Part shown: positions 10,777 through 55,896 of the stretch, one piece after another | Layout: each line of letters starts with the position of its first letter | Numbering within the stretch: the stretch's first letter is position 1 | Source of the DNA: an uncultured Gammaproteobacteria bacterium | Lineage (GTDB): Bacteria > Patescibacteriota > Microgenomatia > Levybacterales > UBA12049 | Assembly: GCA_964503265.1 (NCBI GenBank) | Contig: CAZCYO010000001.1 | Span: 25,119-89,118, forward strand | Reading direction: 5' to 3' | DNA length: 64,000 bases | Translations under genes and position numbers: made by a program | Notes under the pieces: model-generated | The model's database searches: none | Told to the model about the DNA's origin: nothing | The model's input: only the letters and a program-made list of their open reading frames with translations

Positions 10777-10995
10777 ATGAATAATAAAAAGAAAAGAGGA
10801 TTTGCTTCAATGGTAAATTCTGATGAAGGAAAAGAACGTCAAAAGATGATCGCAAGTGCAGGCGGAAGACAAGCACATGTAAAAGGGACTGCCCATAAGT
10901 GGACGACAGAATCTGCTCGCGAAGCTGGTAGGCGTGGGGGAAAAGCAAGACAACGCGCACAGAGTATAGCGAGTATACGTTCTTTACCTCAATAA
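10777..10995 (+). CDS. KGG-repeat stress-induced protein (YciG/con-10-like)
   Basis: GFASM..ERQ.MIASAGGRQAHVKGTAHKWTTESAREAGRRGGKARQ; GGAAGGGGGG SD before ATG 10777 (track ORF from 10663 is an upstream extension). Confidence 0.55.
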   Translation: MNNKKKRGFASMVNSDEGKERQKMIASAGGRQAHVKGTAHKWTTESAREAGRRGGKARQRAQSIASIRSLPQ

Positions 10996-11077
10996 ATCAC
11001 AGATGTTCCCAAAACGGATACATACTGAGTATTGTAAGAGTTAGATAAGAAAGTACAAAACATACTCAGTTCTCTTC

Positions 11078-12274
11078 TTGTTTTTGTTAAAATCAGCACA
11101 GATGGAAAATATAATTGAACTCATTAATGAAGCGGGAGTAAAATTTTTGGAACCACTTACCATAGATGCAACGTATGCGACTATTGTTGAGGAAGCAAAG
11201 AAACTCGTTAAAGCTGAGTACGGATCAGTTCTCTTAGAACAGGACGGCAAGCTTGAGCGGGTATATGCCTCGGATCCATTTCTCGAACATATTATGGTAC
11301 GTGAACGAGGTTTTACGTACGATGCATATAAAACCAGAGTTCCTCATGTTAAAAGTATTGTCGATATCGAAAAAGTTCACCCTGAAATAAAAGCAAAGGG
11401 AATAAAATCTACGATATTCATTCCACTATTTTATCGAAGTAAATCGCTTGGTGTATTATCACTCGATTCACTTACAGATAAAAAATTTACCAAAGAGGAA
11501 CTTGGTGTATTTACCTTATTTGGTTCAATTGCCAGTCTTGCGATTCGTAAAACAGAGTTATATGCTGAAACACAAAAAGCGCTTGAAACTCGGGATTTAT
11601 TTATCTCACTTGCTTCACATGAACTTCGAACTCCGCTTACTTCGCTCAATGGATATGTGCAGCTACTCTATTCAAAACTTGGAAAACAAGACACAAATGA
11701 AGGGAGATGGTCACGTGAATTATATGAAGAGAGCGGGAGATTAACGAGTTTGGTTAAAGAATTACTTGAGATTAACCGGATAAAACAAGGCCAGCTTCAA
11801 TACAATCTTCGTGAGTGTCAGCTTGTAGATATCACTGAAAAAGCAGTTGAACGCGCTCAATTTACTCATAAAGAACATACGATTCTTTTTACAAGCTCTG
11901 TTTCCAAAGGAAATGACTTGTTAATCGCAGATAGTGATAAGTTACTGCAAATGCTTAGCGGACTTATTCGAAATGCGACTAAATTCTCGACTCCTCATAC
12001 GAAAGTAGAAATTTCACTAACCGAAGAAAAAAATATGTTTAAACTAACAGTGACAGATGAAGGAGAGGGGATATATAAAGAAGATTTACCACATGTATTT
12101 GATGAATTTTTTAAAGGAGCAAATAGTAAACAAAAAGAAGAACAAGGAATGGGTGTTGGACTTCTCCTCGCGAGATATATCGTAAACTATCATAAAGGGA
12201 CTATCGCAATTTCTTCAACTGTCGGAAAGGGTACGCAGGTAATCGTGAAACTGCCAAAAGTTGAGTATGAATAG
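11078..12274 (+). CDS. soluble sensor histidine kinase (GAF + HisKA + HATPase_c)
   Basis: No TM; GAF-like N-domain; SHELRTPLTSL H-box; N/G1/G2 boxes (IRNATKFS, DEGEGI, GMGVGL). Confidence 0.8.
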   Translation: MFLLKSAQMENIIELINEAGVKFLEPLTIDATYATIVEEAKKLVKAEYGSVLLEQDGKLERVYASDPFLEHIMVRERGFTYDAYKTRVPHVKSIVDIEKVHPEIKAKGIKSTIFIPLFYRSKSLGVLSLDSLTDKKFTKEELGVFTLFGSIASLAIRKTELYAETQKALETRDLFISLASHELRTPLTSLNGYVQLLYSKLGKQDTNEGRWSRELYEESGRLTSLVKELLEINRIKQGQLQYNLRECQLVDITEKAVERAQFTHKEHTILFTSSVSKGNDLLIADSDKLLQMLSGLIRNATKFSTPHTKVEISLTEEKNMFKLTVTDEGEGIYKEDLPHVFDEFFKGANSKQKEEQGMGVGLLLARYIVNYHKGTIAISSTVGKGTQVIVKLPKVEYE

Positions 12275-13574
12275 AGAGGTTCACCCGACGTCACACGTCG
12301 ACCAACAAGAGGTTATGGAACTTTCAATGCTTCTTGAATCAAAACATCCGGGTACTGAAGTTTTTAATAACCTTAAATCGTTTCCCGGAGGAGAATATGG
12401 TGCAAACGATCCCGAAGAATTTGTCGACACATTTTCTCACACCATTATGATGTATCCTGATCGAGCACATTTACTAGTGAGTGTGGGTGAGCCAGGAAGC
12501 GGCAAGTCGACAGTCCTCTATCAAATGCTTGCTCATATGTTACTTCCGTATGAAATTGAAGAAGAAGGGGAAATAAAAACTGTTACTCCTCCACTTAAGC
12601 AGTTTATTGATGACAATGGTTATGAAGTACAAGTTCATATGGCTCCATGGGGAGATGCTTCAGAGAGATTAGACCCATCATGGGAAATTGATAAAACTAT
12701 TGATTATCATAGAGATACACTTACTCATGAGGCTAAACAGCGTGAAGTTAATTACTCAGAGCGGATAGTTAGAACAGCAATACATAAAACGATCGAAGAA
12801 ACAAATACTGATGCAAAAAATGGGAAGAAAATTATCCATATCTTAGCAGGAGACTTACCTGTTAATACAGGAGATGTTATCGGTGATCAACGTGTGGGAA
12901 TTCTTCGAGCATATGATTTAATGAAAGATCTCATGCAGCGAAATAAAGAATTTGGTGATTTGGCTTATGAACTAAGTTGTTTTGCTATGAGTGCAAGTGA
13001 AGATGTCCGAAATAAAGCATATGGAGATAGAACACTTCTCACTGAGGCACAAACTGAAAAAGAAAAAATTGCAGCACTTGAAGCACAAGGAATGCATATC
13101 AATACGACTGATGATGAAGATATCGCTCTTATCGCTCAGGAATCAGCAAGCCCTGATCAAATGCGAATGATTGAAAGAGATATTAATGATGTACTTTTAG
13201 AAATTTACCCACTTCACGACGAAAGGACTCGTCCGGATAGTTATGCAGAGGCATTTACACTCGATACATTTAAGAATTCGCAGTTTCGGATTCGTACAAT
13301 TGGAGTCGTACAGCTTCCAAGACTGCTTAGTGAAGTACTAGGAGCTGCTCCGACTGATTTACATGTAGGTAACTTTTATAATGAAAGTGTTTCAGAACGA
13401 GTTGATGTTTTTCCTGGAATTGTGAATAGGCATCCAATAAGTGAATTACTTGAAGACGGGATAATTGACCGAATAAAAGCAGAAGAGGCAGGAGCGAAAC
13501 CACCAGAAACTGTTGTTTGGGCAGCTGAGTATTCTGAGTTCAACGCGGCTAATCCAGGATATGGCTCAGCTTGA
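12261..13574 (+). CDS. P-loop NTPase / kinase-like protein, unknown function
   Basis: Walker A VGEPGSGKSTVLYQM, candidate Walker B IIHILAGD; overlaps HK stop by 14 nt (translational coupling). Confidence 0.45.
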   Translation: MSMNREVHPTSHVDQQEVMELSMLLESKHPGTEVFNNLKSFPGGEYGANDPEEFVDTFSHTIMMYPDRAHLLVSVGEPGSGKSTVLYQMLAHMLLPYEIEEEGEIKTVTPPLKQFIDDNGYEVQVHMAPWGDASERLDPSWEIDKTIDYHRDTLTHEAKQREVNYSERIVRTAIHKTIEETNTDAKNGKKIIHILAGDLPVNTGDVIGDQRVGILRAYDLMKDLMQRNKEFGDLAYELSCFAMSASEDVRNKAYGDRTLLTEAQTEKEKIAALEAQGMHINTTDDEDIALIAQESASPDQMRMIERDINDVLLEIYPLHDERTRPDSYAEAFTLDTFKNSQFRIRTIGVVQLPRLLSEVLGAAPTDLHVGNFYNESVSERVDVFPGIVNRHPISELLEDGIIDRIKAEEAGAKPPETVVWAAEYSEFNAANPGYGSA

Positions 13575-13627
13575 CACATATTTTATTCTTTGTTACTTTC
13601 ATAACTGCATACTAAGTTACCTGCCCA

Positions 13628-14932
13628 ATGAATGTATCTGACCTTCGCTTACACATATTTAATACTATCCTCGAACTTTCAACAGAACACGGAATAAACG
13701 CTTCAGGCAAAAATGATGTCTATGGATGTATTTTTGGTAGGGATAGTGCGATTACGATTTTAAAACTTCTTAAGGTAATTGGAAATAAGGAGAATTCTTC
13801 ACTTGAACTATCGAAACTCCAAGATATTTGTCGACGTGGACTGTTAACCCTCGTATCGCTTCAGGGAAAAGAAACAAATGTAGAAAGTGGGGAAGAACCA
13901 GGAAAATTTATTCATGAGTATCGACCGGATAACTATGAAAGATTACTCGTTCTAAAAAAGCCATGGTATATCTACCCAGACGGGGTACTTCGAAATTATG
14001 ATTCACTTGATTCGACTCCGCTTGTACTAATCGCACTGTATAATTACTGGAAATTGACTGGGGATAATGAATTTTTACTCACATGTTTACCAGCTATTGA
14101 AAGTGGACTTAACTGGATGATCACCTATGGAGATCGAGATAAAGATTTTTTACTTGAATATGAACTTTCGCCTGATCGCCAGCATGGGGGGCTAGTCGTT
14201 CAATCATGGACTGATTCAAATGAATCACTCACTCAAGCAGATGGTACGTTTCCACTCTACCCGATAGCACCGGTCGAGGTCCAGGGGTATGCATGGCTCG
14301 CATTTAATCTCTGGGCTGATTTTTATGGCGCTGAGAATACAGTCTCTCACTCAGAGAAATTCGCACATAAACTTCGTTCACAAGCGGTATCACTTAAAAA
14401 ACGATTTAATGAAATTTTTATGTTCCCAGAAGGAACGTATTTTTACCCAGCGCAAGCTCTTGATGGGAATAAAAATAAAATTGAAACAGTTACTGGCAAT
14501 CCACTTCTTTTACTCTGGGCGACATATAAGAAAGATGGAAAGATGGAAACAATTCTTGATGATCAGTATGTAGAGCATCTTGTTAGACGTTCATTTGAAA
14601 CAGATATGTTTGACCACGAGGCCGGAATTCGAACGATGAGTACTGACGCTGCGACGTTCGTCTCTGGTCAAAACTCATATCATAATGGCAGCTTTTGGCC
14701 TGTACTAAACGGTATGGCACATGAGGGACTGATGCATTGGGACTATACGATCGAAGCGAATAAATTAAAAGAAGCGAGCATGAAACCAATTACTTTTTTT
14801 GGAAGTCCTATCGAATTGTATATAACTGATGAAAAAGAACAATACTTGCTGTATAAAAACCCCTTAGGACAAGAAAGCTGCCGCGAGCAAGCATGGTCAG
14901 CCGCCGCCGCCCTCGATTTCCTCACTCTGTAG
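13628..14932 (+). CDS. glycogen-debranching-enzyme-like (GDE_C / six-hairpin) glycoside hydrolase
   Basis: CIFGRDSAIT, EEPGKFIHE, QSWTDS, VQGYAW motifs reminiscent of amylo-alpha-1,6-glucosidase C-domain family. Confidence 0.55.
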   Translation: MNVSDLRLHIFNTILELSTEHGINASGKNDVYGCIFGRDSAITILKLLKVIGNKENSSLELSKLQDICRRGLLTLVSLQGKETNVESGEEPGKFIHEYRPDNYERLLVLKKPWYIYPDGVLRNYDSLDSTPLVLIALYNYWKLTGDNEFLLTCLPAIESGLNWMITYGDRDKDFLLEYELSPDRQHGGLVVQSWTDSNESLTQADGTFPLYPIAPVEVQGYAWLAFNLWADFYGAENTVSHSEKFAHKLRSQAVSLKKRFNEIFMFPEGTYFYPAQALDGNKNKIETVTGNPLLLLWATYKKDGKMETILDDQYVEHLVRRSFETDMFDHEAGIRTMSTDAATFVSGQNSYHNGSFWPVLNGMAHEGLMHWDYTIEANKLKEASMKPITFFGSPIELYITDEKEQYLLYKNPLGQESCREQAWSAAAALDFLTL

Positions 14933-25554: not shown

Positions 25555-26226
25555 TTACTCTCTAATAACGTAGCCGAAGCCTCGGACGGAGTGGAGGAGT
25601 TTCTTTTCGTGGCCTTCATCTACTTTTTTTCGTAAGTATCCCATATAGACATCGACAACTCTGGTTTCAACTTCGCTTGAATAAAGCCAAATTCTATTTA
25701 AGATCATTTCACGAGTCAAAATTCTTCCTTTATTACTCATAAGATACTGGAGTAATTTAAATTCTTGGGGAGTGAGTTGGATTTGTTTACCGTTTCGTAT
25801 GACTTCGAGTGTTTTCGCATCGAGAGTTAAGTCGTTTATCGTTAACTTCGTGTCGCCGTTTCCTGTTGAGCGAAGTCTGGCTTTAATTCTAGCTAAAAAT
25901 TCATCTGCCACAAATGGTTTTGTAATGTAATCATCTGCTCCTAAATTAAGTCCTTGGACAATATCACTGACACTGTCTTTGGCGGTTAGAATAATGATTG
26001 GAAGTTCTGGGTATTTTTTGCGAACTTCAGTACAGACTGCTTCTCCAGACATATTCGGAAGTCCGAGATCAAGTACCATCACATCGGGTTCCATTTTTCC
26101 AAGTTGATCAAGTGCTTCAATGCCATCTCCAGCTAATTGGACATTATAGGCATTATCAAGGAGGAGTTCTTTTAAATATTTTTGGAGACCTTTGTCATCT
26201 TCTACCACCAGAATTGTGTACGTCAT
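25555..26226 (-). CDS. OmpR/PhoB-family response regulator
   Basis: REC domain (VEDD...D, DVMVLDLGLP, ILTAKD) + winged-helix (LTPQEFKLLQYL...RVVDVYMGYLRKK). Confidence 0.88.
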   Translation of the reverse strand: MTYTILVVEDDKGLQKYLKELLLDNAYNVQLAGDGIEALDQLGKMEPDVMVLDLGLPNMSGEAVCTEVRKKYPELPIIILTAKDSVSDIVQGLNLGADDYITKPFVADEFLARIKARLRSTGNGDTKLTINDLTLDAKTLEVIRNGKQIQLTPQEFKLLQYLMSNKGRILTREMILNRIWLYSSEVETRVVDVYMGYLRKKVDEGHEKKLLHSVRGFGYVIRE

Positions 26227-26664
26227 ATAATATTCAGTATTATAGCAACAATTCTACGCTTGAACAAACACTTTTACCTCATCTATTACAGTTTTCATAC
26301 ATATGGATAAATATTCGTTATGAGTTGTTGGTATATTCTTACGCATCTATGATCCAAATCTTACTGTTGACTTGACTTAGTACTCACTTTTGTTATACTT
26401 CCTTCACTCCTTTGCTATCACACTGGAGTAACTGATGAGTATCCTGCCAACCATCATATCTCCTGTTTTCACCTTTACCCACTTATGTATTTGTGTGCCG
26501 AGAATTCTTTTTCAGAGTGTTAACGAAACGATATCTCAATTCAGAATAAAGGATGTGATATATAATGATTGAAGAGTTCATACGAAAAATAATTGCGATA
26601 TTCGGCAGTCGACCTCAGCCCGCATATGTAACGGTCGAGGAGTAAGAACGGTACTGAGCGCGTA

Positions 26665-27042
26665 ATGTATAATGTCGATATGAATGGAAAAATATTAGTT
26701 GCAGAAGACGATAGTGCAATAGTAGAGGTAATGAAAATTATTCTTGAAGATGCCAAATATACTGTTTTTACGGCAGATAATAGTCGCGATATTCATTCAC
26801 TTATCAAAAACGAAGATCCACAGCTTTTACTACTCGATATCTGGTTATCTGGTGAAAATGGTGGGGAAATTGCAAAAAGTATTAGAACAGATGAGAAAAC
26901 AGCATCACTTCCAATTGTCATGATTTCGGCAAATAACGAAACAGAACGAATCGCTAAAGAAGTAGGAGCAGCGGGATTTTTACAAAAGCCATTTACCATT
27001 GATGATTTACTTTCGATGGTTAAACAGCACATTCGTGCTTAA
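26665..27042 (+). CDS. single-domain CheY-like response regulator
   Basis: KILVAEDD, LLLLDIWLSG, MISANNE, FLQKPF; no output domain; probable start at MNGKIL (26683). Confidence 0.8.
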   Translation: MYNVDMNGKILVAEDDSAIVEVMKIILEDAKYTVFTADNSRDIHSLIKNEDPQLLLLDIWLSGENGGEIAKSIRTDEKTASLPIVMISANNETERIAKEVGAAGFLQKPFTIDDLLSMVKQHIRA

Positions 27043-44540: not shown

Positions 44541-45299
44541 ATGAGTGCCCACATATCCCTCTCAGTAATTATTCCTTGTTTTGAAGAAATGGCTAATCTC
44601 CAAAAGGGCGTACTTGATAAAGTAAATAACTATCTTGCACGTAAAAAATTCGATTATGAAGTCATTATTGTGGATGATGGTTCACATGATGGAAGTGTGG
44701 ATTTTGTTGAAGAATTTATTACTGACAACCCCAAATTTAGACTCATTAAAAACTCTCATACTGGTAAGGCTGGGGCAGTCACAGCTGGCATGCTTACTGC
44801 TAAACATGAGTTATCGCTCTTTACAGATATGGATCAGGCAACTCCTATTGAAGAACTCGAAAAATTACTTCCGTATTTTGATGAAGGATATGATGTGGTG
44901 ATCGGATCACGTGCAAATACTCGAAAAGGTTCTCCACTGATTCGTCAATTTATTTCTCGTGCGAATATGGTTCTCCGGAAAGCCATTGTCGGAGTGAGAG
45001 ATATCTCAGATACTCAGTGTGGGTTTAAAATGTTTCGTACATCAGTCGCAAAAGATCTTTTTAGTAAAGTAAGTACCATTCATAATGGATTTAAGCATAT
45101 AAATGGATCGAGTGTCTCAAGTGGCTTTGATGTCGAGTTACTTTATATCGCTGAAAAAATGGGAAATAACATAAAAGAAGTTCCAGTACGATGGCTTTAT
45201 GTTGAGACGAGACGGGTTAATCCAGTGAAAGATTCGATTGACGGAGTGAATGAATTATTAAAAATTAAAAAAAATGCGCTTTCTGGGAAATATGATTGA
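44541..45299 (+). CDS. GT2 glycosyltransferase (polyprenyl-phosphate sugar synthase, DPM1/ArnC-like)
   Basis: LSVIIPCFEE...VIIVDDGSHDGS, DxD (TDMDQ), QCGFK. Confidence 0.85.
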   Translation: MSAHISLSVIIPCFEEMANLQKGVLDKVNNYLARKKFDYEVIIVDDGSHDGSVDFVEEFITDNPKFRLIKNSHTGKAGAVTAGMLTAKHELSLFTDMDQATPIEELEKLLPYFDEGYDVVIGSRANTRKGSPLIRQFISRANMVLRKAIVGVRDISDTQCGFKMFRTSVAKDLFSKVSTIHNGFKHINGSSVSSGFDVELLYIAEKMGNNIKEVPVRWLYVETRRVNPVKDSIDGVNELLKIKKNALSGKYD

Positions 45300-45341
45300 A
45301 CTTGCGTATGGCATAGAGCAAATGGCGTATAGTTATAATAC

Positions 45342-46526
45342 ATGATTTTTTTAAAACAGTTATCTAAAACAGAAAAAATAGTCCTTGGGTTTTATATCAT
45401 CGCTTCTGTACTTCTTCTTCTTTATTCTTTCACGCAAATAGATTTAGGACTTGTTATATCGCGGTTTCCCTTTCTTTATGCTTTTGAGAAAGCATTTCAG
45501 AATATCGGATACTTTAATCGTCCACTTTCGACGCTTCTTTTTATTCTATTAATACTTCTTTTCTCAGGGATGTATCTTAATGTCGTTGGATCAATTAAAC
45601 ATATTTCGCGAAAAGCGATCTGGATGATTGTTCTCTCAGTTTCGGTTATTCTTTTTCTATCGTATAACGCTTTCTCTTATGACTTATTTAACTATATTTT
45701 TGATGCAAAAATTCTGACACAGTATCATGCAAATCCATATCTCCACAAAGCGTTAGATTATCCAGCTGACCCGATGCTTTCGTTTATGCACTGGACACAC
45801 AGAGTATATCCGTATGGGCCAGTATGGCTTGCTGTCACTGTACCCTTATCATACTTAGGAATGGGACTATTTCTCCCGACGTTTTATCTATTCAAATTAC
45901 TTATGCTCGCATCATATGTAGGAACGACGTATGTTATTGGAAAAATTCTTCGAACTATTTCGCCAGAATCTGAAACAGCTGGTTTGGTAATATTCGCGCT
46001 CAACCCTTTGGTTATTTTTGAAACGCTTATCTCAGCACATAACGATATCTTTATGATGTTTCTCATGGTATTGTCGCTTTATTTACTTCTTAAAAAGAAC
46101 ATGATATGGAGTGTTTTTATCACTGTTCTTTCAATTGCTACGAAATTTGCGACACTATTTTTGTTACCGATGTATGTTTTATTATTCTTAAAGCGAAAAA
46201 ATATAACTGAGAAATACTGGAATACGATGATGATTTTGGGAGTAGCATTGATGTTTCTGGCGGTACTAGTCGTATCTTACCGATCTAATTTCCAACCATG
46301 GTATCTTCTCTATGTTTTGCCTTTTATCTCTCTCATAACGAAAAACAAATCATGTATCTATCCGTCATTTTTTCTCTCAATTATCGCACTTGGAAATTAT
46401 CTGCCATATTTATATATGGGAACATGGACTGATCCAGTGATGCAGTATTTGTTTTGGGTAAATAGTATTTGTGGATTAATCAGTGTTATTTGGTTTTCAA
46501 TACTTGTTACAAAGAACTCTAACTAA
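45342..46526 (+). CDS. polytopic membrane protein, GT-C-like (DUF2029/GT87-like?)
   Basis: ~11 TM with extracytoplasmic loop motif after TM1. Confidence 0.4.
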   Translation: MIFLKQLSKTEKIVLGFYIIASVLLLLYSFTQIDLGLVISRFPFLYAFEKAFQNIGYFNRPLSTLLFILLILLFSGMYLNVVGSIKHISRKAIWMIVLSVSVILFLSYNAFSYDLFNYIFDAKILTQYHANPYLHKALDYPADPMLSFMHWTHRVYPYGPVWLAVTVPLSYLGMGLFLPTFYLFKLLMLASYVGTTYVIGKILRTISPESETAGLVIFALNPLVIFETLISAHNDIFMMFLMVLSLYLLLKKNMIWSVFITVLSIATKFATLFLLPMYVLLFLKRKNITEKYWNTMMILGVALMFLAVLVVSYRSNFQPWYLLYVLPFISLITKNKSCIYPSFFLSIIALGNYLPYLYMGTWTDPVMQYLFWVNSICGLISVIWFSILVTKNSN

Positions 46527-47800
46527 TATCTTTTAATTTCTTTGTTCTTATTTCCTTGATCTTGCCAGATTTGATAAAAGTAGGCTTTTATATCTCCTTC
46601 ACTATAACTAATTGCACCGTATTTAGTAATTTGCTCTCTTGCAGCAATTCGCTGATGATCAATTCCTTTGTCTGTTGGAAGTTCCAAAAGTGCTTTGACG
46701 TTATAAAAACCATAATAAAGCCAATATACACTAAAAAGTGTTATGAAAATTGGCCGATTAATGTTAATTAATCGATACATGATATATACGATCATATAGA
46801 TCACAAGTGGCATGTGAAGTAAAAAATAATAGTCAGAAATACTTCCTTTATATAACGTAAATCCGATGACTGGAACGGCAAACCATGGAATCATCAGAAG
46901 GCCGAGTTGTTGTAGTTTTTTATCTTTCTCAAACGCTGTAAGAATAAAAAATACAGCTGGAATAATATATTTTAACATTGCTAATTGTTTAAAGAACAGG
47001 AGAGCTTCGAATTGAACAAGCGACTGTGGAAGTCGAAAAAAGAAAAAACGTAAATGAAATGATTGAGTATATGAACTATTAAAATCTTTTATTCGATATG
47101 TTTCCCCATGTGCTCCCTGTATATCGAAAATGATGGTCGGAATAAAGAAAAGAACATAGACAAAAAAACTTGGAATAATATACTTGATACTTTGTTTCCA
47201 GTCTTTAAAAAATATCAGTGAAAGTACAATAATTGGTGGAATAAAAAGAAATGTAAAGTGAAGATGAAAAAATAGTCCCGATAACGCTGCAAGGATAGGG
47301 AACCAGTAATATTTTTTTTGATACAGCTGGTAAATTCCATAATACAGGAGAATAGAAACAGCCGGAACAAGTGAGACGTTATATTGAATTTGACTTTGGT
47401 GGATCAGATAAAAACTAAAAATATAGAGTGTTGATGCAGCGACAGCAACCTTTTCTGAAAATAGTTTTTTCGAAACGAAATAAAATACACAGATATTGAT
47501 AATGTACGCGATCATGACAGAATAATTACTGGCAACAGGGTCCAGATTCGTGAAATAGAAAAAAGGCGCTAGGAAGTAAAAATAAAATGGTCCAATTGGA
47601 ATACGTCCAGCTCCTGTTATGGGGCCATCTAGGACGAGTTGTCCGCGAAGAAGATCTCGGACTTTCCATGCATCTCGAGCCTGATCCCACCCAAATTCCT
47701 GAGTTACGTTAATAGCATGGAATCGAAGATAAAAACCAATAAGAACGAGAAGAAGAAAGAGAAGATAATATTTGTAGCGGAATATAAAAGCCATCTTCAT
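46523..47800 (-). CDS. GT-C membrane glycosyltransferase (PMT/ArnT GT39/83-like)
   Basis: F.WDQARDAWKVRDLL...GP first-loop motif, ~11 TM. Confidence 0.5.
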   Translation of the reverse strand: MKMAFIFRYKYYLLFLLLVLIGFYLRFHAINVTQEFGWDQARDAWKVRDLLRGQLVLDGPITGAGRIPIGPFYFYFLAPFFYFTNLDPVASNYSVMIAYIINICVFYFVSKKLFSEKVAVAASTLYIFSFYLIHQSQIQYNVSLVPAVSILLYYGIYQLYQKKYYWFPILAALSGLFFHLHFTFLFIPPIIVLSLIFFKDWKQSIKYIIPSFFVYVLFFIPTIIFDIQGAHGETYRIKDFNSSYTQSFHLRFFFFRLPQSLVQFEALLFFKQLAMLKYIIPAVFFILTAFEKDKKLQQLGLLMIPWFAVPVIGFTLYKGSISDYYFLLHMPLVIYMIVYIMYRLININRPIFITLFSVYWLYYGFYNVKALLELPTDKGIDHQRIAAREQITKYGAISYSEGDIKAYFYQIWQDQGNKNKEIKRY

Positions 47801-47860
47801 AAGTGTATCATTGTGCTTCTTTTATTGCATCTGCAGCGCTAGACACTCATAGAAAACTCT

Positions 47861-47885
47861 GTCATTCCCGACTTGATCGGGAATC
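47861..47885. repeat. hairpin repeat GTCATTCCCG-loop-CGGGAATC
   Basis: gtcattcccgacttgatcgggaatc. Confidence 0.7.
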
Positions 47886-47896
47886 TTACCAAATAG

Positions 47897-47920
47897 ATTC
47901 CCGTTTTCACGGGAATGACA
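47897..47920. repeat. hairpin repeat identical to 7729..7752
   Basis: gattcccgttttcacgggaatgaca. Confidence 0.7.
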
Positions 47921-47975
47921 TTTATTTTTGAGAATCTCGTTTGCTTCCCATTTCATTTGCTCGTATAATAATCAT

Positions 47976-49514
47976 ATGGTTCTTATAAAAAAGTATTGGA
48001 AAGAAATACTCATCAGTCTAGCACTTGTAGTTGGATATTTTTTCCTTCGTCTCCTTTCTTTACAAAGCCTCCCTATTTTTACTGATGAAGCTATTTATGT
48101 TAGATGGGCACAAATTGCACTTCAGGATGCGAACTGGCGATTCATATCTCTAACTGATGGTAAGCAACCTATGTATGTCTGGGTTGCGCTTATTTTCATT
48201 AAATTTATTCAGGATCCACTAATCGCTGGACGAATGGTATCTGTAGTTTGTGGGTTTTTTACATTGGTTGGTTTGTGGCTTCTATCATATGAGCTATTTA
48301 AAAATAAACGAATGGCTTTTTTGACTGCACTGTTATATGTCGTTTTCCCTTTTGCACAAGTGCTTGATCGGATGGCTCTCTATGACAGTATGGTAGGCGC
48401 ATTTGCTGTTTGGGGGCTTTATTTATCGATTCTTCTTGTTAGGCACAGAACAGTGACTAATGCATATACACTTGGTATTATTTGGGGAGGAGGAGTGCTT
48501 ACTAAGACGAATGCGTTTTTTAGTATTGCAGCAGTACCACTTACTCTCCTTTTAGGTAACTTTGAAAGAAAAAATTGGAAAAAAGAAATCGTACGCTGGA
48601 TACTGCTTGCAGGGTTTGCTGCAATCATTTCTCAGGTAATGTATACGATCCTTCGATTGTCTCCACTTTACGGCATGATTAATACGAAGAATGCTACCTT
48701 TGTTTATCCAGTTGGTGAATGGATTCATCACCCTTTAACCTATTTCTCTGGGAATTTTCATGGATTAACTAGTTGGTTACTCCAATATCTAGGAATCTCA
48801 TATTCGTTACTCCTCGTTCTTGGACTAGGCGTTTTTATGAAAGAATGGAAAGAAAAAGTTGTCCTATTTATCTACTTTTTGGCTCCATTTATATTTCTCG
48901 CACTATTTGGAAAAGTTATTTTCCCTCGTTTTATTTTCTTTACGAGCCTTATGCTACTTCCAATTATTGGATGGGGACTTAATTTTATTTTAAATGGTAT
49001 TTCCTATTTTCTAAAATCAAAAGATAAACAGTTTATCTCTATAACTCAGATACTTGTCGTGATTCTCTTTATTATATATCCGCTTTATACGTCAGTCACT
49101 TTTGCCGTTGATCCGACAAAGGCTCCTATCGCTGATGCAGATAATGTGCAATATATAAACGGATGGAACGCAGGATGGGGTGTTGATCAAAGTATCGAAT
49201 TATTTAAAAAAGAAGCGCAGGATAAAAAAATATTTATCGGTACAGAAGGAACATTCGGTATGATGCCTTTTGCACTTGAAATGCAGCTTGTTGATAATCC
49301 AAATATAATTCTAAAAGGGTATTGGGGATTTGATAAAACACTTCCAGATGAAGCTTTGGTCTATGCTAAACAAATGCCAGCATATTTCGTGTTCTATCAA
49401 CCCAACCATCGTCCACAGCTAGATGCAAATTTGTATCCAATGAAATTAGTATTTAAAGTCCAACAAGGAAATACAAATTATTATTATTCGGTTTACCAAA
49501 TCATCTCCCGATAA
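47976..49514 (+). CDS. GT-C membrane glycosyltransferase (PMT/ArnT-like)
   Basis: FTDEAIYVRWAQ (DE motif loop 1), ~12 TM; track ORF begins at TTG 47928. Confidence 0.5.
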   Translation: MVLIKKYWKEILISLALVVGYFFLRLLSLQSLPIFTDEAIYVRWAQIALQDANWRFISLTDGKQPMYVWVALIFIKFIQDPLIAGRMVSVVCGFFTLVGLWLLSYELFKNKRMAFLTALLYVVFPFAQVLDRMALYDSMVGAFAVWGLYLSILLVRHRTVTNAYTLGIIWGGGVLTKTNAFFSIAAVPLTLLLGNFERKNWKKEIVRWILLAGFAAIISQVMYTILRLSPLYGMINTKNATFVYPVGEWIHHPLTYFSGNFHGLTSWLLQYLGISYSLLLVLGLGVFMKEWKEKVVLFIYFLAPFIFLALFGKVIFPRFIFFTSLMLLPIIGWGLNFILNGISYFLKSKDKQFISITQILVVILFIIYPLYTSVTFAVDPTKAPIADADNVQYINGWNAGWGVDQSIELFKKEAQDKKIFIGTEGTFGMMPFALEMQLVDNPNIILKGYWGFDKTLPDEALVYAKQMPAYFVFYQPNHRPQLDANLYPMKLVFKVQQGNTNYYYSVYQIISR

Positions 49515-49516
49515 GT

Positions 49517-51106
49517 ATGGAACTAGTAAAACATATTCTGAGAGCAAAGCTTTTTACTATCATACTTATTCTGTTATGCTCACTTCCACTTATTTTTCCA
49601 TTATTCCATCCAGGATTTTTTGTCTCAGACGATGGAGATATATTGATAATACGTTTAACTGCTTTTCATGAAGCTTTTGCACAGGGTCAATTTCCTGTTC
49701 GACTTATTCCACGATTATATTTCCATTATGGTTATCCGGTAAGTAATTTTTTATACCCAGGATATCTATATATTTCAGAAGCATTTCACCTAATTCATTT
49801 CGGATTTATTAATTCTATAAAAATACTACTCATTCTTTCTCTCAGTTTGAGTGGAGTATTTACTTATTTGTGGCTTAACAAATGGTTAAAAAAATTCCCA
49901 AGTATCATCGGAAGTTTAGTATATTTGTATGCTCCATATCATTATTACGATATGTATAAACGTGGATCTATAGGAGAAGTGTTGGCTCTTGCAGTTGTGC
50001 CATTTGTTTTTTGGGTGATGGAACTGCGATATGTTTCATTAATTATTATTGGGTTATCTTTTCTTATTATTTCACACAATACGCTTGCTATAGTCTTTCT
50101 CCCATTACTTGTTAGTTACTATTTTATTCGACATAAGGTATGGCAGCGAAAAAATGAAATCCTCCGCATGAGTCTTTTTCTCATTATTTCTCTACTAATT
50201 TCATCTTTCTTCTGGATACCTGCACTCTATGAATTGCACTATACGATTTTCTCACAGACAACAGTCAGTGAAATAGGAAATTATTTTATCCAACCGGATC
50301 ATATGCTTTTTGGAAAATTGAGTTACTTTTATTTGGTTGTAACTGCAGGTATTTCATTTGTTCTTTTCAAATACAGACAGAAAGTAGAGAAAATAAACAT
50401 GGCTTTACTAACTTTTCTAGGATTTTTTAGCACAATTGCATTATTCTTAAATACTTCACAGAGTGTAATTATTTGGAATACTTTACCAATTTCATTTATT
50501 CAATTTCCGTTTCGTTTGTTCGCTATTACTATGATTTTCTTTGCGATGGTGGTGGCTATCGTAATCGATATGATAAAAGGTAAAAAGCAATATGTTGTTG
50601 GCGTAGTACTTGCTATTCTTTTTATTGGCCCTTTATTCTTTTTTATTCGACCTCAAGAATATTCAGGAAGAGATGACATGTTTTATTCAACGAATGATGA
50701 TTCAACAACGATAAAAAATGAATACTTACCGACATGGGTTAAAGAGCGATCTTTTTCAAAACCAAAATCAGAAATAGAAGGCAAAGGAGTAACATATCTT
50801 GGAGAAAAGAAAGGCACATACATGATAGATGTTACAGGAGATAGTTCGCGAAACATGAGATTTAACATGATTTATTATCCAGGATGGGTTGCAAAAGCAG
50901 ATGGAGTTATGATCCCAATTAGTTACAACAACAATAAAGGAGTAATGGATGTCGTAATACCGAGAAACACTAATCAAGTGACATTTATGTTTACTGAAAC
51001 ACCAGTTCGAATGATTAGTAATATTTTGTCAATTATCGGTCTTATATTCTTAGGTATAGTACTTGTTCGAGATATAACAATATATTATGCAGCTAGTAAA
51101 AAATAA
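49517..51106 (+). CDS. polytopic membrane protein, paralog A
   Basis: PLFHPGFFVSDDGD...FPVRLIP...GYP..FLYPGYLYI; 13+ TM. Confidence 0.4.
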   Translation: MELVKHILRAKLFTIILILLCSLPLIFPLFHPGFFVSDDGDILIIRLTAFHEAFAQGQFPVRLIPRLYFHYGYPVSNFLYPGYLYISEAFHLIHFGFINSIKILLILSLSLSGVFTYLWLNKWLKKFPSIIGSLVYLYAPYHYYDMYKRGSIGEVLALAVVPFVFWVMELRYVSLIIIGLSFLIISHNTLAIVFLPLLVSYYFIRHKVWQRKNEILRMSLFLIISLLISSFFWIPALYELHYTIFSQTTVSEIGNYFIQPDHMLFGKLSYFYLVVTAGISFVLFKYRQKVEKINMALLTFLGFFSTIALFLNTSQSVIIWNTLPISFIQFPFRLFAITMIFFAMVVAIVIDMIKGKKQYVVGVVLAILFIGPLFFFIRPQEYSGRDDMFYSTNDDSTTIKNEYLPTWVKERSFSKPKSEIEGKGVTYLGEKKGTYMIDVTGDSSRNMRFNMIYYPGWVAKADGVMIPISYNNNKGVMDVVIPRNTNQVTFMFTETPVRMISNILSIIGLIFLGIVLVRDITIYYAASKK

Positions 51107-52784
51107 ATCATTTTTCTATTTAGTACTTCTTTGTGTGCTATCAGTGCTAACTGTATTACCATTTTTTTATAATGGTTTTTTCACGATGCATGATAATACT
51201 CAGGTAGCTCGTGTTTCAGAGATGTCACTCAGTCTTCGTGACGGAATGATACCCGTTCGTTGGGTGATGAATCTAGGATATGGATATGGGTATCCTATTT
51301 TTACGTTCTATGCGCCTTTTGCATATTATATAGGTGCTTTCTGGATGACTTTTGGACTAGATGCTCTTGTTGCTACAAAACTAATGATGATGAGTGGCGT
51401 TATATTAGCAGGTATGTTTATGTATTTGTTTGCAAAAGATATCTGGGGAGAAGAAGGAGGGTTTGTTGCCGCTCTTTTCTACTTATTTGCTCCATATCAT
51501 GCAGTGAATATTTATGTACGAGGTGCGGTTGCAGAGTTTTGGGGAATGGCTTTTTTACCCTTACTTTTTTATGGGATATGGAATACCTATAAAACAGGAA
51601 AATGGCGTTATGTATGTATAAGCAGTATCGCATACGCAGGCATTATTCTGTCACACAACTTAACTGCGATGATGGTTACACCGTTTGTTCTTGTTGTTAT
51701 TGGTGGGATGAAAATCATGTATCTCTCAAGAAAAGAATATAAAAAAATACTACCACTTGGAATACTTTTGATACTCGGAATAACACTTTCTGCATTTTAT
51801 TGGCTTCCAGCAGTTACAGAGATGAAGTACACGAATGTTGTTTCACAAATAACAGGAACAGGTTCAAAATTTGGTGATCACTTTGTTTGCATGAATCAGT
51901 TGTGGGATAGTGCATGGGGATATGCTGGCTCAGCACCAGGATGTGTTGATGGTATTTCATTTAGAATCGGTAAGCTTCATATTCTTTTTACTATTATCGG
52001 GATTATTCTAGGAATTTTTATCTACAAAAAGAATAGAGAAAAAGGAATTATACTTGGTGGAAGTATTTTATTTTTTTTCGCAGCAACTTTTTTAACACTT
52101 CAAAACTCTGAACTTCTCTGGAAAAGCATTTCTGCGATGTCGTATTTTCAATTTCCGTGGCGCTTTCTGTTACTTGTCGTATTCTTTTCATCATTTATTA
52201 GTGGAGGAGTGATCTGGTATGTCCGTGAATACCTTCAAAACCAAAGAATACTATTTTATGCTTTTCTTATTGGAGTCATGCTTGGGTGCATACTATTATA
52301 TTCAAAATTATTTGTTCCACAACTCTTAACTCAAGATACAGCTAAATCACTAACTGATTCCAAATCAATTCGTTTTACTATTTCTAAAATATCAGATGAG
52401 TATATGCCTAAAAATTTTCACAAACCTTTGACCGAAAGTGACGTAGTAACTGAAAAAAGTGCCATTATTAATGGCCAAGGAACAATTAATGAACAACCTA
52501 TACTGTCCTATGCTCAGGGATATTCTGTTGAAGCTATTACTCCTGTTACTCTTCTTTTGCGAACTGCGCCGTTTCCAGCATGGAGAACATATATTGATGG
52601 CAAAGAAGTACCACACACGAATCTGACGTCAGGAATGAAGGTAGTAGTTCCGATCGGAACACATATGGTATCAGCACAATATATATCAACATGGATTGAA
52701 ATGACAGGAAATCTAATAACTCTTACTAGTATGCTAGGGCTTGTTATTGGTATAATTTATTTGCATAAGAAAAACATGCTCTAA
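51087..52784 (+). CDS. polytopic membrane protein, paralog B of 49517..51106
   Basis: PFFYNGFFTMHDN...IPVRWVMNLGYGYGYPIFTFYAPFAYYI aligns with paralog A; YLFAPYH shared. Confidence 0.4.
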   Translation: MQLVKNKSFFYLVLLCVLSVLTVLPFFYNGFFTMHDNTQVARVSEMSLSLRDGMIPVRWVMNLGYGYGYPIFTFYAPFAYYIGAFWMTFGLDALVATKLMMMSGVILAGMFMYLFAKDIWGEEGGFVAALFYLFAPYHAVNIYVRGAVAEFWGMAFLPLLFYGIWNTYKTGKWRYVCISSIAYAGIILSHNLTAMMVTPFVLVVIGGMKIMYLSRKEYKKILPLGILLILGITLSAFYWLPAVTEMKYTNVVSQITGTGSKFGDHFVCMNQLWDSAWGYAGSAPGCVDGISFRIGKLHILFTIIGIILGIFIYKKNREKGIILGGSILFFFAATFLTLQNSELLWKSISAMSYFQFPWRFLLLVVFFSSFISGGVIWYVREYLQNQRILFYAFLIGVMLGCILLYSKLFVPQLLTQDTAKSLTDSKSIRFTISKISDEYMPKNFHKPLTESDVVTEKSAIINGQGTINEQPILSYAQGYSVEAITPVTLLLRTAPFPAWRTYIDGKEVPHTNLTSGMKVVVPIGTHMVSAQYISTWIEMTGNLITLTSMLGLVIGIIYLHKKNML

Positions 52785-52791
52785 TCTATTT

Positions 52792-53541
52792 ATGGCTGCA
52801 AAGAAACTTTCACTTGAAATTACAATCCCTGTCTATAATGAAGAAAAAGAGCTTGAGGATAGTATTTTAAAACTCCATACTTTCTGTAAAAAAAACATGC
52901 AAGACTATGCGTGGCGAATAACTATCGCAGATAACGCGTCAAGTGATAATACACCAGTTATTGGAGCGACTCTTGCTAAGAAATACTCTGAAATAAAATT
53001 ATTTCGTTTAGAAGAAAAGGGAAGAGGACGTGCTGTAAAGAGGGCATGGAGTGAGTCAGATTGTGATATTTGTGCTTATATGGACTTGGACCTTTCGACA
53101 GATTTAAAGCATCTCCCAGCCCTTTGTAAGGCGCTTGAAAATGGATATGATATTGCGATTGGATCTCGACTCAAAAAGGGAGCGCTTGTTGAGGGAAGAA
53201 CAATGCTTCGAGAAATAACGTCTCGTACACTTAATTTCTTTTTTATTAAATTATGGTTCCAAACATCATTTACTGATGCACAGTGTGGTTTTAAAGCAGT
53301 TACGCGAGACGTTGTTGAGAAACTTATTCCAAAAATTCAGGATAATGGATGGTTTTTTGATGGAGAATTACTTATCGTTGGTGAGAAAAGTGGATATAAC
53401 ATATATGAAGAGCCCGTGCACTGGGTAGATAATCCTGGTTCAACAGTTCGCCTTATTTCAACTATTTCAGGGGATATACGAGTAATGTTTCGATTACTTA
53501 CTACTAAGCCATGGAAACAGATCTCATCGAACCTAACATAG
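52792..53541 (+). CDS. GT2 glycosyltransferase (DPM1-like)
   Basis: ITIPVYNEE...ITIADNASSDNT, DLD, QCGFK. Confidence 0.85.
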   Translation: MAAKKLSLEITIPVYNEEKELEDSILKLHTFCKKNMQDYAWRITIADNASSDNTPVIGATLAKKYSEIKLFRLEEKGRGRAVKRAWSESDCDICAYMDLDLSTDLKHLPALCKALENGYDIAIGSRLKKGALVEGRTMLREITSRTLNFFFIKLWFQTSFTDAQCGFKAVTRDVVEKLIPKIQDNGWFFDGELLIVGEKSGYNIYEEPVHWVDNPGSTVRLISTISGDIRVMFRLLTTKPWKQISSNLT

Positions 53542-54983
53542 AAGTCACACATGTGGGGCGAAAGTCAGTGTACGGAATTCTCGCACTTATTTCTCGTCAA
53601 TTTGTGCTGCAAATAATCTCAGTTATTGCCTTTCTTATTATCTCAGCTCGTTTATCAGTATCTGAAATTGGTATCTATACAGCCGTAATTGCGATTCAAC
53701 GAGTAATAAGTTTTTTTACTGATTTTGGAATTGGCGCAGCATTAGTTCAAAAGAAAGAAGAATTGACTCATGCAGATCTTACAACGAGCTTTTCTATTCA
53801 ATCAATTGTAACGCTGAGCATATTTTTAATTGTGTTTTCGCTTCAAAGCATTTTGTTCCCTTTTTTTAAACTTGATGCAAATGGAGGAGCGTTGTTACTC
53901 GTCCTAGTTTTTTCTATTTTCCTTTCGTCGTTTAAAGTAATTCCTTCAATTTTACTTGAGAGAAAAATACAATTTGAAAAACTTATTATTCCACAGATTG
54001 CTGAATCACTTGTTTTTAATATTGTTTTAATTGTTTTAGTATTACAAAACTTTGGAATAGCAAGCTATACATGGGCATTCCTTCTTTCCAGTTTAGTTGG
54101 AATACCAATCTATTTTATGATTTCTCCTTGGAAAATTGGACTTGGAATTGATCGGGATTCGCTGCATCATTTAAAGTTCGGGGCACAGTTTCAAATAAAA
54201 AATATTCTCGCTACTGTGAAAGACGATATGTTAACTGTTATCTTAACAAAGTTTTTAAGCTTTGGAGAAATTGGATATATCGGATTTGCTCAACGAATTT
54301 CATTTTTAACCTATCGGTTTGTTGTTGATAGTGTAACTAAAGTAACATTTTCTAGTTATGCACGTTTGCAACATGATGTGACAGTACTTAAAAAAGCGAT
54401 TGAAAAATCATTGTTTTATGTTAGTGCAAGTATGTTTCCTGTTTTAGTTGGATTGATCATTACAATGCCATATTTTATTGAATACTACGGTAAATGGCAC
54501 CACAAATGGGAACCAGCGATCATAAGTATAACCTTTTTCTCACTCAACGCGATGGTATCTTCACTTTCTGGGATTTTGGTAAATGTACTTGATGCGACGG
54601 GTAAAGTTAAATGGACACTGTATTTAATGGTTTTCTGGACAATTCTCACATGGATTTTAACACCTCTTTTGATTTGGTTATTTGGATATAATGGTGTTGC
54701 AGCAGCGTCATTCTTTGTTACATTAACAATTAGTATTACAATTTATCTTGTTAAAAAATACATTCCTTTCAGTTTTTGGGCAAGTATTATAAAGCCGCTT
54801 TTAGCAACTATTATCATGGGGTGTTTTGTCTTTATAATGACTCGTGTATTCGTTTCAAATATTGCGACACTTAGTCTCTGTATTGGTTTAGGTGGTATTA
54901 TTTATATAGCAGGGTTTTATCTTATTGCTCGAAATGAACTATATGAAGGGATAACGATAATTAGGAGAAAATATGGGAAATAA
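53511..54983 (+). CDS. Wzx-like polysaccharide flippase (MOP superfamily)
   Basis: 490 aa, ~14 TM, Polysacc_synt-type topology. Confidence 0.6.
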   Translation: METDLIEPNIEVTHVGRKSVYGILALISRQFVLQIISVIAFLIISARLSVSEIGIYTAVIAIQRVISFFTDFGIGAALVQKKEELTHADLTTSFSIQSIVTLSIFLIVFSLQSILFPFFKLDANGGALLLVLVFSIFLSSFKVIPSILLERKIQFEKLIIPQIAESLVFNIVLIVLVLQNFGIASYTWAFLLSSLVGIPIYFMISPWKIGLGIDRDSLHHLKFGAQFQIKNILATVKDDMLTVILTKFLSFGEIGYIGFAQRISFLTYRFVVDSVTKVTFSSYARLQHDVTVLKKAIEKSLFYVSASMFPVLVGLIITMPYFIEYYGKWHHKWEPAIISITFFSLNAMVSSLSGILVNVLDATGKVKWTLYLMVFWTILTWILTPLLIWLFGYNGVAAASFFVTLTISITIYLVKKYIPFSFWASIIKPLLATIIMGCFVFIMTRVFVSNIATLSLCIGLGGIIYIAGFYLIARNELYEGITIIRRKYGK

Positions 54984-55896
54984 AAATTTATCAGTTGTTA
55001 TATCAGTTCATAATGGAGAAGCACATTTAGCGGAATGTTTATCTTCTCTTAGTACTGTTGCCGGAGAAATAATTGTTGTAAACCACGATTCATCTGATAA
55101 AACAGTCGAGATTGCTGAAAAATTTGATGTTACACTTTATCATGAGAAAAATAATCCACAAAAAATTGATATTCAAAAAAACTTTGGATTTTCTAAAGTA
55201 ACAAAAGAATGGATATTTAGTTTGGATGCTGACGAAGAAATTACTCCTGAATTAGCACTTGAATTAAAGGAAATACTAGCTAGCCAATCAGAAATTGATG
55301 GATATGAAATTCCTCGACAAAATATAATTTTAGGTAAAGTAATACACCATGCAGGGTGGGCACCGGATTATCAATTACGTCTTTTTAGGAAGGGAAAAGG
55401 TTTATTTGAGAAAGAGCATGTACACGAATCAATTTCTATTGATGGAAAAATAGGAAAAATAAGAGCTGCAATTCTTCATCATAATTATGATTCAATAGCA
55501 CAGTATCTAAAAAAAATGATTGTCTATGCTGAAAATGAAGCAAATGAGAAAATACGTAACGGATATGTATTTAACTGGAAAGATGCTTTATGGATGCCAC
55601 AAAGTGAATTCTTAAGTCGTTATTTTGCTCGTGAAGGTTATAAAGATGGGTTGCACGGATTAGTTATTTGCTTACTCCAATCTGTGTATCATTTTACAAT
55701 CTTCTGTTATCTTTGGGAAAAGAATAATTTTCCAGAGAAAACTGAAGAAGAAGTTGTATCTGAAATTGATAGTGAAACAAATAAATTAATGAAAACAACT
55801 GGTTTCTGGATGACCAAACTTAAGATAGAGCGAACTGCTAATCCAGGCAAAAAGGTGACATATAAGATAATTAATAAAATTAAATCGTCACTATGA
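54973..55896 (+). CDS. GT2 glycosyltransferase
   Basis: LSVVISVHNGEAHLAECLSSL...VVNHDSSDKT, LDADE. Confidence 0.85.
   Translation: MGNKNLSVVISVHNGEAHLAECLSSLSTVAGEIIVVNHDSSDKTVEIAEKFDVTLYHEKNNPQKIDIQKNFGFSKVTKEWIFSLDADEEITPELALELKEILASQSEIDGYEIPRQNIILGKVIHHAGWAPDYQLRLFRKGKGLFEKEHVHESISIDGKIGKIRAAILHHNYDSIAQYLKKMIVYAENEANEKIRNGYVFNWKDALWMPQSEFLSRYFAREGYKDGLHGLVICLLQSVYHFTIFCYLWEKNNFPEKTEEEVVSEIDSETNKLMKTTGFWMTKLKIERTANPGKKVTYKIINKIKSSL

Follow-up and report, generated by a model that had tools for sequence, protein, structure and literature searches.

A soluble GAF histidine kinase, an overlapping gene for a P-loop protein and an OmpR-family response regulator form a conserved gene set in Microgenomates-type bacteria

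The DNA analyzed here, a 64,000-nucleotide stretch of contig CAZCYO010000001.1 (hereafter the window), carries three consecutive forward-strand genes that encode a soluble histidine kinase with a GAF domain, a P-loop protein and a protein resembling glycogen-debranching enzymes. The original prediction, which was made from the sequence of the window alone, had placed these three genes in a row, and this was confirmed by the open reading frames, found at 11078..12274 (kinase), 12261..13574 (P-loop protein) and 13628..14932 (hydrolase), together with Pfam and the PDB entry 7vma. The features of the first two genes are as follows, with conservation given as the fraction of 30 aligned members of the P-loop protein family described below.

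11102..12274, forward strand: soluble sensor histidine kinase of GAF-HisKA-HATPase_c architecture, 390 residues from ATG 11102; the open reading frame opens at TTG 11078
11162..11545, forward strand: GAF domain of the kinase, residues 29-156 of the 11078 reading frame (Pfam, 5.2e-10)
11591..11791, forward strand: HisKA domain of the kinase, residues 172-238 of the 11078 reading frame (Pfam, 1.8e-12)
11618..11620, forward strand: phospho-acceptor His181 of the kinase, in the H box SHELRTPL
11930..12259, forward strand: HATPase_c domain of the kinase, residues 285-394 of the 11078 reading frame (Pfam, 1.5e-24)
12267..12274, forward strand: start/stop overlap ATGAATAG, with the ATG of the P-loop gene inside the final kinase codons
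12267..13574, forward strand: P-loop protein with a predicted kinase-type fold, of an undescribed family, 435 residues; the open reading frame opens at TTG 12261 (437 residues)
12486..12512, forward strand: Walker A sequence GEPGSGKST, residues 76-84 of the 437-residue reading frame
12648..12656, forward strand: WGD motif closing the second core strand (W130 30/30, G131 29/30, D132 20/30)
12831..12860, forward strand: Walker-B-like strand IIHILAGDLP, with Asp198 (28/30; Glu in 2/30) followed by Leu-Pro
12897..13031, forward strand: G213..R216 and SAS..VR....R257 (Arg216 30/30, Arg257 29/30)

Inspection of the kinase translation revealed intact H, N, G1, F and G2 boxes, which read SHELRTPL, IRNATKF, DEGEGI, FDEFFKG and GMGVGL, respectively. 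The protein has both an acceptor histidine and a complete HATPase_c domain and is a HisKA-type kinase. Because its GAF domain begins at residue 29, which leaves no space for a membrane anchor, the kinase is cytoplasmic. The N-termini of orthologues and a Logan call back ATG 11102 as the start codon; the NCBI annotation is of 398 residues. Matches in NCBIfam covered the catalytic core only, a PADLOC match to PDC-M43B arose through the generic HATPase_c domain, and no KaiB-like domain was found in the kinase with Pfam.

The P-loop protein contains a Walker A sequence of the form GxxxxGK[ST] with a conserved lysine. An exhaustive HMMER search of 1.84 billion representatives recovered 30 family proteins at E <= 1e-3, with lengths of 256-500 residues, mostly 360-450. 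Within Walker A, K82 was present in 30/30 members, G76 and P78 in 28/30 each and G81 in 27/30. Across the alignment, K82, W130 and R216 were invariant, and G76, P78, G81, G131, D198, G204, G213, F231, R257, A296, N374 and P392 were present in at least 27 members. Position 132 was occupied by Asp in 20 members and by Glu in 3, and the Walker B motif of the family is D-L-P, without a catalytic Glu. Arg216 and Arg257 are candidates for phosphate-contacting residues. Given 29 homologues that are close to it in length, and a structure model of high confidence (described below), the open reading frame is a real gene.

No match at or near threshold was found for the P-loop protein in Pfam, NCBIfam, PADLOC or PHROG, and its PDB sequence and family-profile matches were confined to the P-loop segment (zeta 0.21, KaiC 0.1). 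The zeta-toxin, AAA_33 and KaiC identities that had been put forward as candidates were therefore discarded, no family profile having exceeded threshold. Assignment to STAND or AAA+ proteins was also rejected, as no profile match extended past the P-loop and the protein lacks an ASCE topology in which Walker B is followed by a catalytic Glu; weak nSTAND3 matches were seen in 6 of the 30 members. Nor was a known anti-phage defense system recognized, with no PADLOC model reaching threshold and the matches to mad8 (0.0034) and PtuA (0.021) both limited to the P-loop.

A word-indexed homology search returned only the protein itself when queried with the protein, and such searches with the protein and the family alignment taken together yielded no more than the protein and one member. 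A degenerate pattern (GEPxxGK[ST], 34 residues, WG[DE]) matched 25 loci among GTDB genomes and a further 7 among JGI metagenomes. By hmmsearch, no convincing family member was among them; the sole weak match, L037 from the metagenome set (2.7e-4), was judged to lie outside the family. All of the 90% clusters examined contained one or two sequences. A taxon name was obtained for 1 of 13 family members queried, and the member RJQ36921.1 is a hypothetical protein from a Candidatus Microgenomates bacterium (Patescibacteria group). The family is evidently rare and, on the basis of these searches, new and undescribed, with a few dozen known sequences and no entry in Pfam, NCBIfam or PDB.

The genomic context of the family was compared in 12 distinct loci, namely the window (L001), L002, L003, L004, L005, L006, L007-9, L010, L043-47, L048, L049 and L050-52. 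An orthologue of the GAF kinase was found directly upstream of the P-loop gene in 11 of the 12, which answers in the affirmative the earlier question of whether the gene pair is conserved. In ten loci this orthologue shows 39-84% identity to the window kinase; in L005 the upstream sequence is a 48-residue fragment, which ends ...TVEIKLPKAKT and shares the C-terminus of the kinase. Every unfused family member among the sampled loci has a kinase orthologue upstream. In the twelfth locus, L004, the encoded protein (P0012) carries a receiver domain (Response_reg 1.6e-21) N-terminal to the family domain. This receiver retains the acidic pocket, the phospho-acceptor Asp, the Thr and the Lys, and the P0012 gene begins 14 nucleotides after that of an OmpR-type regulator. 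The fusion architecture is regarded as real because a second receiver fusion, P0048, exists (501 residues, 54% identical, six member sequences). Two lineages have such a fusion.

The kinase and P-loop genes are joined in the window by the sequence GTTGAGTATGAATAG. The likeliest start of the P-loop gene is ATG 12267, which gives an overlap of 8 nucleotides and is favored because it agrees with the NCBI call (435 residues) and because the orthologous junctions of L003 and L050 are arranged alike. The overlap noted in the original prediction thus exists, but the length of 14 nucleotides given there applies only to the mechanical reading-frame start at TTG 12261. A JGI start at ATG 12315 (419 residues), which would replace the overlap with a 40-nucleotide gap, is not supported by comparison of the orthologous junctions. 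Overlaps of 4 nucleotides (ATGA) were found in L002, L005 and L006, of 8 nucleotides in the window, L003, L010, L050 and probably L043, and of 11 nucleotides in L007 and L048; a spacer, of 7 nucleotides, was present in L049 only. The overlapping stop and start codons point to translational coupling of the two genes.

A response regulator gene and a set of promoter repeats were also associated with the pair.

25555..26226, reverse strand: OmpR-family response regulator (REC + Trans_reg_C, Pfam)
26068..26070, reverse strand: Asp53 of the regulator
11033..11050, forward strand: TGTAAGAgttagATAAGAa, an 11-bp direct repeat ∼70 nucleotides upstream of the kinase start
26284..26301, reverse strand: TGTATGAaaacTGTAATA, a direct repeat upstream of the regulator gene, with further GTAAGA sequences at about -116 and -138

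Orthologues of the regulator are 69-96% identical to the window copy. In L002, L005, L006, L043, L048 and L049 the P-loop gene is followed immediately by the convergently oriented regulator gene, whose orthologue in L004 immediately precedes the receiver-fused member and in L050 is found two genes downstream. In the window the regulator is 11 kb from the kinase/P-loop pair, behind an RHS toxin cassette that L050 lacks. L050 comes from a close relative and shares synteny with the window over the interval between MutS and Lon, and this synteny identifies the window regulator as the same gene as the orthologues that adjoin the pair. Because regulator orthologues adjoin the pair in relatives, the kinase is considered to have a receiver, and the OmpR-type regulator is presumed from this arrangement to be its cognate partner. 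The earlier notion that the P-loop NTPase stands in place of a receiver is therefore contradicted. The broader proposal of a non-canonical signaling module was borne out as regards the conserved coupling of kinase and P-loop gene, which is real, but not as regards the receiver, since a canonical OmpR receiver belongs to the set. The soluble GAF kinase, the overlapping P-loop gene and the OmpR regulator together form a conserved three-gene set.

TGTAAGAA boxes, often arranged as 11-bp direct repeats, are common to the promoters of the kinase operon and the regulator gene. GTAAGA occurred 13 times, against 0.53 expected, in 1826 nucleotides comprising 11 kinase or regulator promoter regions from six loci, and was found in 8 of the 11 regions. 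Direct repeats of this 11-bp kind are typical of OmpR-family sites. The TGTAAGAgttagATAAGAa repeat is accordingly a candidate binding site for the OmpR-type regulator, with the motif drawn only from enrichment across loci; window-wide, the TGTAAGA direct repeat was not above chance (4 occurrences, 3.1 expected), and single boxes numbered 7 against 12.7 expected. That direct repeats are shared by both promoters suggests autoregulation. The 26 open codons that precede the regulator ATG in the window (26227..26304, reverse strand) align with the N-terminal extension of the 249-residue JGI call for the L050 regulator; identity across the full 249 residues is 92.8%. Every other orthologue has 223 residues, and the 26-codon similarity probably represents promoter DNA kept between close relatives and not coding sequence.

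The window P-loop protein was modeled with a predicted local distance difference test score (pLDDT) of 86.6, and an independent model of P0020, a member 25% identical to it, had a pLDDT of 83.8. Comparison of the P0020 model with known structures gave the same list as the window model, namely GLYK (10.0), Grc3 (9.7), YGR205w (9.6), Clp1 (9.2) and PFK-2 (9.1). No match at E <= 0.001 was found with Foldseek against PDB. The models indicate a fold of the small P-loop kinase type and not an AAA+, RecA or STAND (ASCE) fold, an assignment that is reproducible and extends to superfamily level only. Judging from the order of secondary-structure elements, residues ∼247-368 (∼120 residues) would form a helical insert at the position of the kinase LID. 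This segment opens with SAS..VR....R257 and includes R343, and the core sheet resumes at residues 369-374, ending at N374. When compared with members of the P-loop kinase superfamily (the D-glycerate-3-kinase/YGR205w/PanK group, the Clp1/Grc3 polynucleotide kinases, PFK-2, adenylate kinase and the zeta/PezT toxins), the protein shows 7-20% identity and no sequence-level match. It differs from these families in its ∼120 extra helical residues, in the lack of conservation of the Asp after strand 2, and in its context, which is one of signaling as opposed to metabolism or toxin-antitoxin function.

The P-loop gene has diverged far more than the genes around it. In six loci with complete genes, identity was 65-77% among regulators, 39-56% among kinases and 21-31% among P-loop proteins. 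Between the window and L050, identity was 96% for both Lon and the regulator, 93% for the first 46 residues of a small protein encoded upstream of the kinase, 84% for the kinase, 81% for the hydrolase, 76% for MutS and 24% for the P-loop protein, and DNA identity fell from ∼75-80% to ∼35-40% exactly over 12270..13570. Similarly, L010 and L007 share 91% identity in their GT4 transferases, 72% in the kinase C-terminus and 32% in the P-loop protein. Identities of the P-loop protein and the kinase were uncorrelated over 45 locus pairs (r = 0.06). Nonsynonymous divergence (dN) between the window and L050, estimated by the Nei-Gojobori method, was 0.93 for the P-loop gene but much lower for its neighbors: 0.14 (hydrolase), 0.13 (kinase), 0.046 (regulator) and 0.035 (Lon). 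The P-loop value is 7-27 times those of its neighbors, with a ratio to synonymous divergence (dN/dS) of ∼0.3 and saturated synonymous sites (pS 0.62-0.75). Relaxed constraint is sufficient to account for this divergence; given the saturation and the dN/dS of ∼0.3, neither cassette replacement nor positive selection of the P-loop gene is claimed.

The third gene of the row is described next.

13628..14932, forward strand: predicted glycoside hydrolase of the GDE_C / MGH1-like (alpha/alpha)6 type, 434 residues, 53 nucleotides downstream of the P-loop gene

Its Pfam scores are barely over threshold (MGH1-like_GH 28.7 bits with a cut-off of 27, GDE_C 22.7 bits with a cut-off of 21), and it matches the archaeal-type Gde structure 7vma at 1e-22 over positions 259-532 of 620. 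These similarities indicate a six-hairpin GDE_C / MGH1-like glycoside hydrolase, which differs from 7vma in missing ∼200 of the N-terminal residues of the latter. No terminator-like site was found between the P-loop gene and the hydrolase gene, and the two are probably co-transcribed. A hydrolase orthologue directly follows the P-loop gene in L003 (83% identity) and L050 (81%). In L002, a GT4 transferase and a hydrolase (56%) are encoded just past the regulator, and in L007/L009 and L010 the next gene after that of the P-loop protein is a GT4 gene orthologous to that of L002. Neither a GT4 nor a GDE-like gene was present within 10 kb in L043, L048 or L049. Glycoside hydrolase or GT4 genes thus occur with the module in roughly half of the lineages, an association that recurs without being a defining feature, so that the link to storage-glycan turnover suggested earlier applies to part of the family only. 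A distant 543-residue paralogue of the hydrolase is encoded in L050 (10829..12460, forward strand; 21% identity, E 2.5e-9; GDE_C 1.3e-4), between the hydrolase and the regulator, at the position taken in the window by the RHS cassette.

Other features of the neighborhood include the following.

10777..10995, forward strand: 72-residue basic protein, KGG-like by eye, upstream of the kinase; 93% identical in L050 over the first 46 residues
15623..23928, forward strand: polymorphic-toxin cassette; its 2207-residue RHS-repeat protein carries an Ntox33 toxin domain at the C-terminus, and genes of the DUF4279, Imm26 and DUF2489-like types come next

The positional equivalent of the 72-residue protein in L002 (763..981) passes the Pfam KGG threshold, whereas the window copy fails. 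Small stress-type genes adjoin the kinase in every long locus, and a Transgly_assoc (GlsB/YeaQ-type) membrane protein is encoded near the kinase in L043 (8576..8821), L048 (8420..8668) and L049 (4442..4696); the 72-residue protein is possibly part of the same stress-related neighborhood. A Crp-like regulator (cNMP_binding + HTH_Crp_2) is encoded divergently beside the GAF kinase in L008 (198..884, reverse strand) and L050 (16379..17062, forward strand) and is absent at that position in the window; it hints that a cyclic nucleotide may be the GAF ligand. A stand-alone receiver protein of 125 residues (26665..27042, forward strand; Response_reg 1.2e-23) is encoded close to the OmpR regulator in the window and is conserved in L050 (75% identity), with similar single-domain receivers in L043 and L049. 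The RHS protein contains three internal protein repeats of ∼200 residues, and Tandem Repeats Finder detected no DNA-level tandem repeat in its gene. At 44541..63734 of the window, a long run of same-strand genes has a G+C content of 0.31-0.35, lower than the ∼0.38 found elsewhere, and one segment (58357..58617) weakly matches GT4. This run may be a cluster for polysaccharide or cell-envelope functions.

The preferred interpretation, to which a probability of roughly 0.55 is assigned, is that the module is a lineage-specific three-component system of Microgenomates-type (Patescibacteria) bacteria in which the P-loop protein serves, depending on nucleotide, as an effector or adaptor on the output side of the kinase. 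It is in itself quite probable that the P-loop protein has a function within the two-component pathway. Its placement downstream, as an effector, is tentative; an upstream role, in which it would regulate the kinase much as RapZ does QseE/QseF, is rather doubtful and yet nearly as likely as the downstream one. Domains fused to receivers are usually outputs, and the P-loop domain is favored as an effector or adaptor on that ground. A switch or adaptor also fits better than a classical enzyme, because invariance of the residues that bind nucleotide goes together with poor conservation of the putative catalytic Asp and with very fast divergence of the surface.

The mechanism envisaged for this three-component system is one in which the kinase would autophosphorylate on His181 and pass the phosphate to Asp53 of the regulator, which would in turn bind the TGTAAGAA direct repeats before its own gene and the kinase operon. 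Translational coupling would fix the ratio of P-loop protein to kinase, and the two proteins would form a complex. The P-loop protein would constitute a second, non-transcriptional output branch, controlled by direct kinase contact in most lineages and, in those with the fusion, via phosphotransfer to the fused receiver. Its ATP- or GTP-bound state, or a phosphotransfer that it catalyzes, would then act on a further target. The GT4 and GDE-like genes found in about half of the lineages, together with the small stress genes, point to glycoside metabolism under stress, involving either compatible solutes or storage glycans.

An alternative that is considered unlikely would make the P-loop protein a conventional enzyme of metabolism, such as a small-molecule kinase (for instance of the glycerate or sugar type, serving the GDE/MGH1-like hydrolase and the GT4 transferase) or a polynucleotide kinase, that merely shares an operon with the histidine kinase by which it is regulated. 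The kinase-type fold and the recurrence of the glycan genes are compatible with such a role, but the Asp after strand 2 is unconserved and the context is one of signaling. Of similarly low probability is a new class of kinase-bound signaling subunit in candidate-phyla-radiation bacteria. Such a subunit could be hypervariable and serve as a sensor or specificity component that passes ligand, host or phage cues to the conserved GAF kinase, or it could be a P-loop phosphotransferase acting on the kinase, the regulator or a signaling nucleotide; the divergence of the P-loop gene would then reflect diversifying selection or allele exchange and not relaxed constraint. In both cases a further layer, based on P-loop phosphotransfer or a nucleotide switch, would be attached to the His-Asp relay.

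Less probable still is that the P-loop protein modifies the histidine kinase or the regulator as a protein kinase or phosphotransferase of P-loop type, adding to the His-Asp relay a second layer of phosphorylation on Ser, Thr, Tyr or another residue. P-loop protein kinases such as HprK/P and the BY-kinases are known, and the kinase fold, the invariant or nearly invariant Lys82, Arg216 and Arg257, and the presumed fixed-ratio co-expression with the histidine kinase would all suit such an enzyme. There is, however, no similarity to known families of P-loop protein kinases, D132 is unconserved, and nothing points to an acceptor site. An improbable reading of comparable rank takes the P-loop protein to be a conflict-type sensor NTPase, for anti-phage defense or host interaction, that is subject to diversifying selection or allele replacement and whose alarm is relayed by the two-component system. 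The confinement of extreme divergence to the P-loop gene, the independence of its identity from that of the kinase, the 90% clusters of one or two sequences, the weak nSTAND3 matches and the RHS toxin cassette next door in the window all speak for this reading; relaxed constraint is sufficient to account for the divergence, and no PADLOC model reached threshold. Chance adjacency of an unrelated housekeeping NTPase between the kinase and the hydrolase is very improbable, for although the overlap alone ties the genes together in the window, the arrangement recurs in 11 of 12 loci with kinases merely 39-84% identical, receiver fusions exist, and no other upstream neighbor was found for unfused members in the sampled loci, a conserved synteny that contradicts chance.

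Patescibacteria have small genomes and few regulators, and a signaling module conserved in such a lineage likely controls something central to its lifestyle. Should the P-loop protein prove to be a nucleotide-dependent partner of the histidine kinase, the system would also provide a clean model, with a soluble kinase, three compact genes and natural receiver fusions. The 7-27-fold faster evolution of the P-loop gene relative to its obligate partners merits study in its own right.

Several known systems combine similar elements. In the output of the cyanobacterial clock, the nucleotide or phosphorylation state of the P-loop ATPase KaiC governs a soluble histidine kinase (SasA/CikA), which in turn signals to the OmpR-type regulator RpaA. 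A P-loop protein, a soluble histidine kinase and an OmpR-family regulator are likewise present here; KaiC is, however, a double RecA-like hexamer, whereas the window protein is predicted to have a monomeric kinase-type fold and matches KaiC at the P-loop only (E 0.1). The module also resembles the OmpR/EnvZ-type "three-component systems" in pairing a HisKA kinase with an OmpR regulator, in its probable autoregulation via direct repeats and in having an extra co-encoded protein. It differs from them in that the accessory gene overlaps that of the kinase, the regulator is encoded convergently, and the accessory protein is a predicted nucleotide-binding protein of kinase fold as opposed to a membrane or periplasmic modulator.

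In the QseE/QseF system of Escherichia coli, the histidine kinase and the regulator are both contacted by cytoplasmic RapZ, which has a kinase-like P-loop domain and alters their phosphorylation (PMC7073468). The module shares with RapZ-QseE/QseF the addition of a P-loop, kinase-like third component to a two-component system, but the window protein has neither sequence similarity nor close fold similarity to RapZ. In the actinobacterial conservons (CvnA-D), the operon that encodes a sensor histidine kinase also includes a gene for a non-receiver P-loop NTPase, namely a small Ras-like GTPase, together with Roadblock/MglB and DUF742 proteins (PMC13343842, PMC13621833). The sensor kinase described here is likewise co-operonic with a P-loop NTPase other than a receiver. 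The conservon-specific families are missing, however, no Roadblock, DUF742 or small-GTPase family having been detected with Pfam in the window neighborhood or any of the related loci, and a canonical OmpR regulator belongs to the module; identification as a conservon was rejected on these grounds. The module thus belongs to none of RapZ-QseEF, KaiC-SasA-RpaA and the conservons, and a nucleotide-dependent histidine-kinase partner, if that is what the P-loop protein is, would represent a new type of third component for two-component signaling alongside RapZ-QseEF, KaiC-SasA and the conservons.

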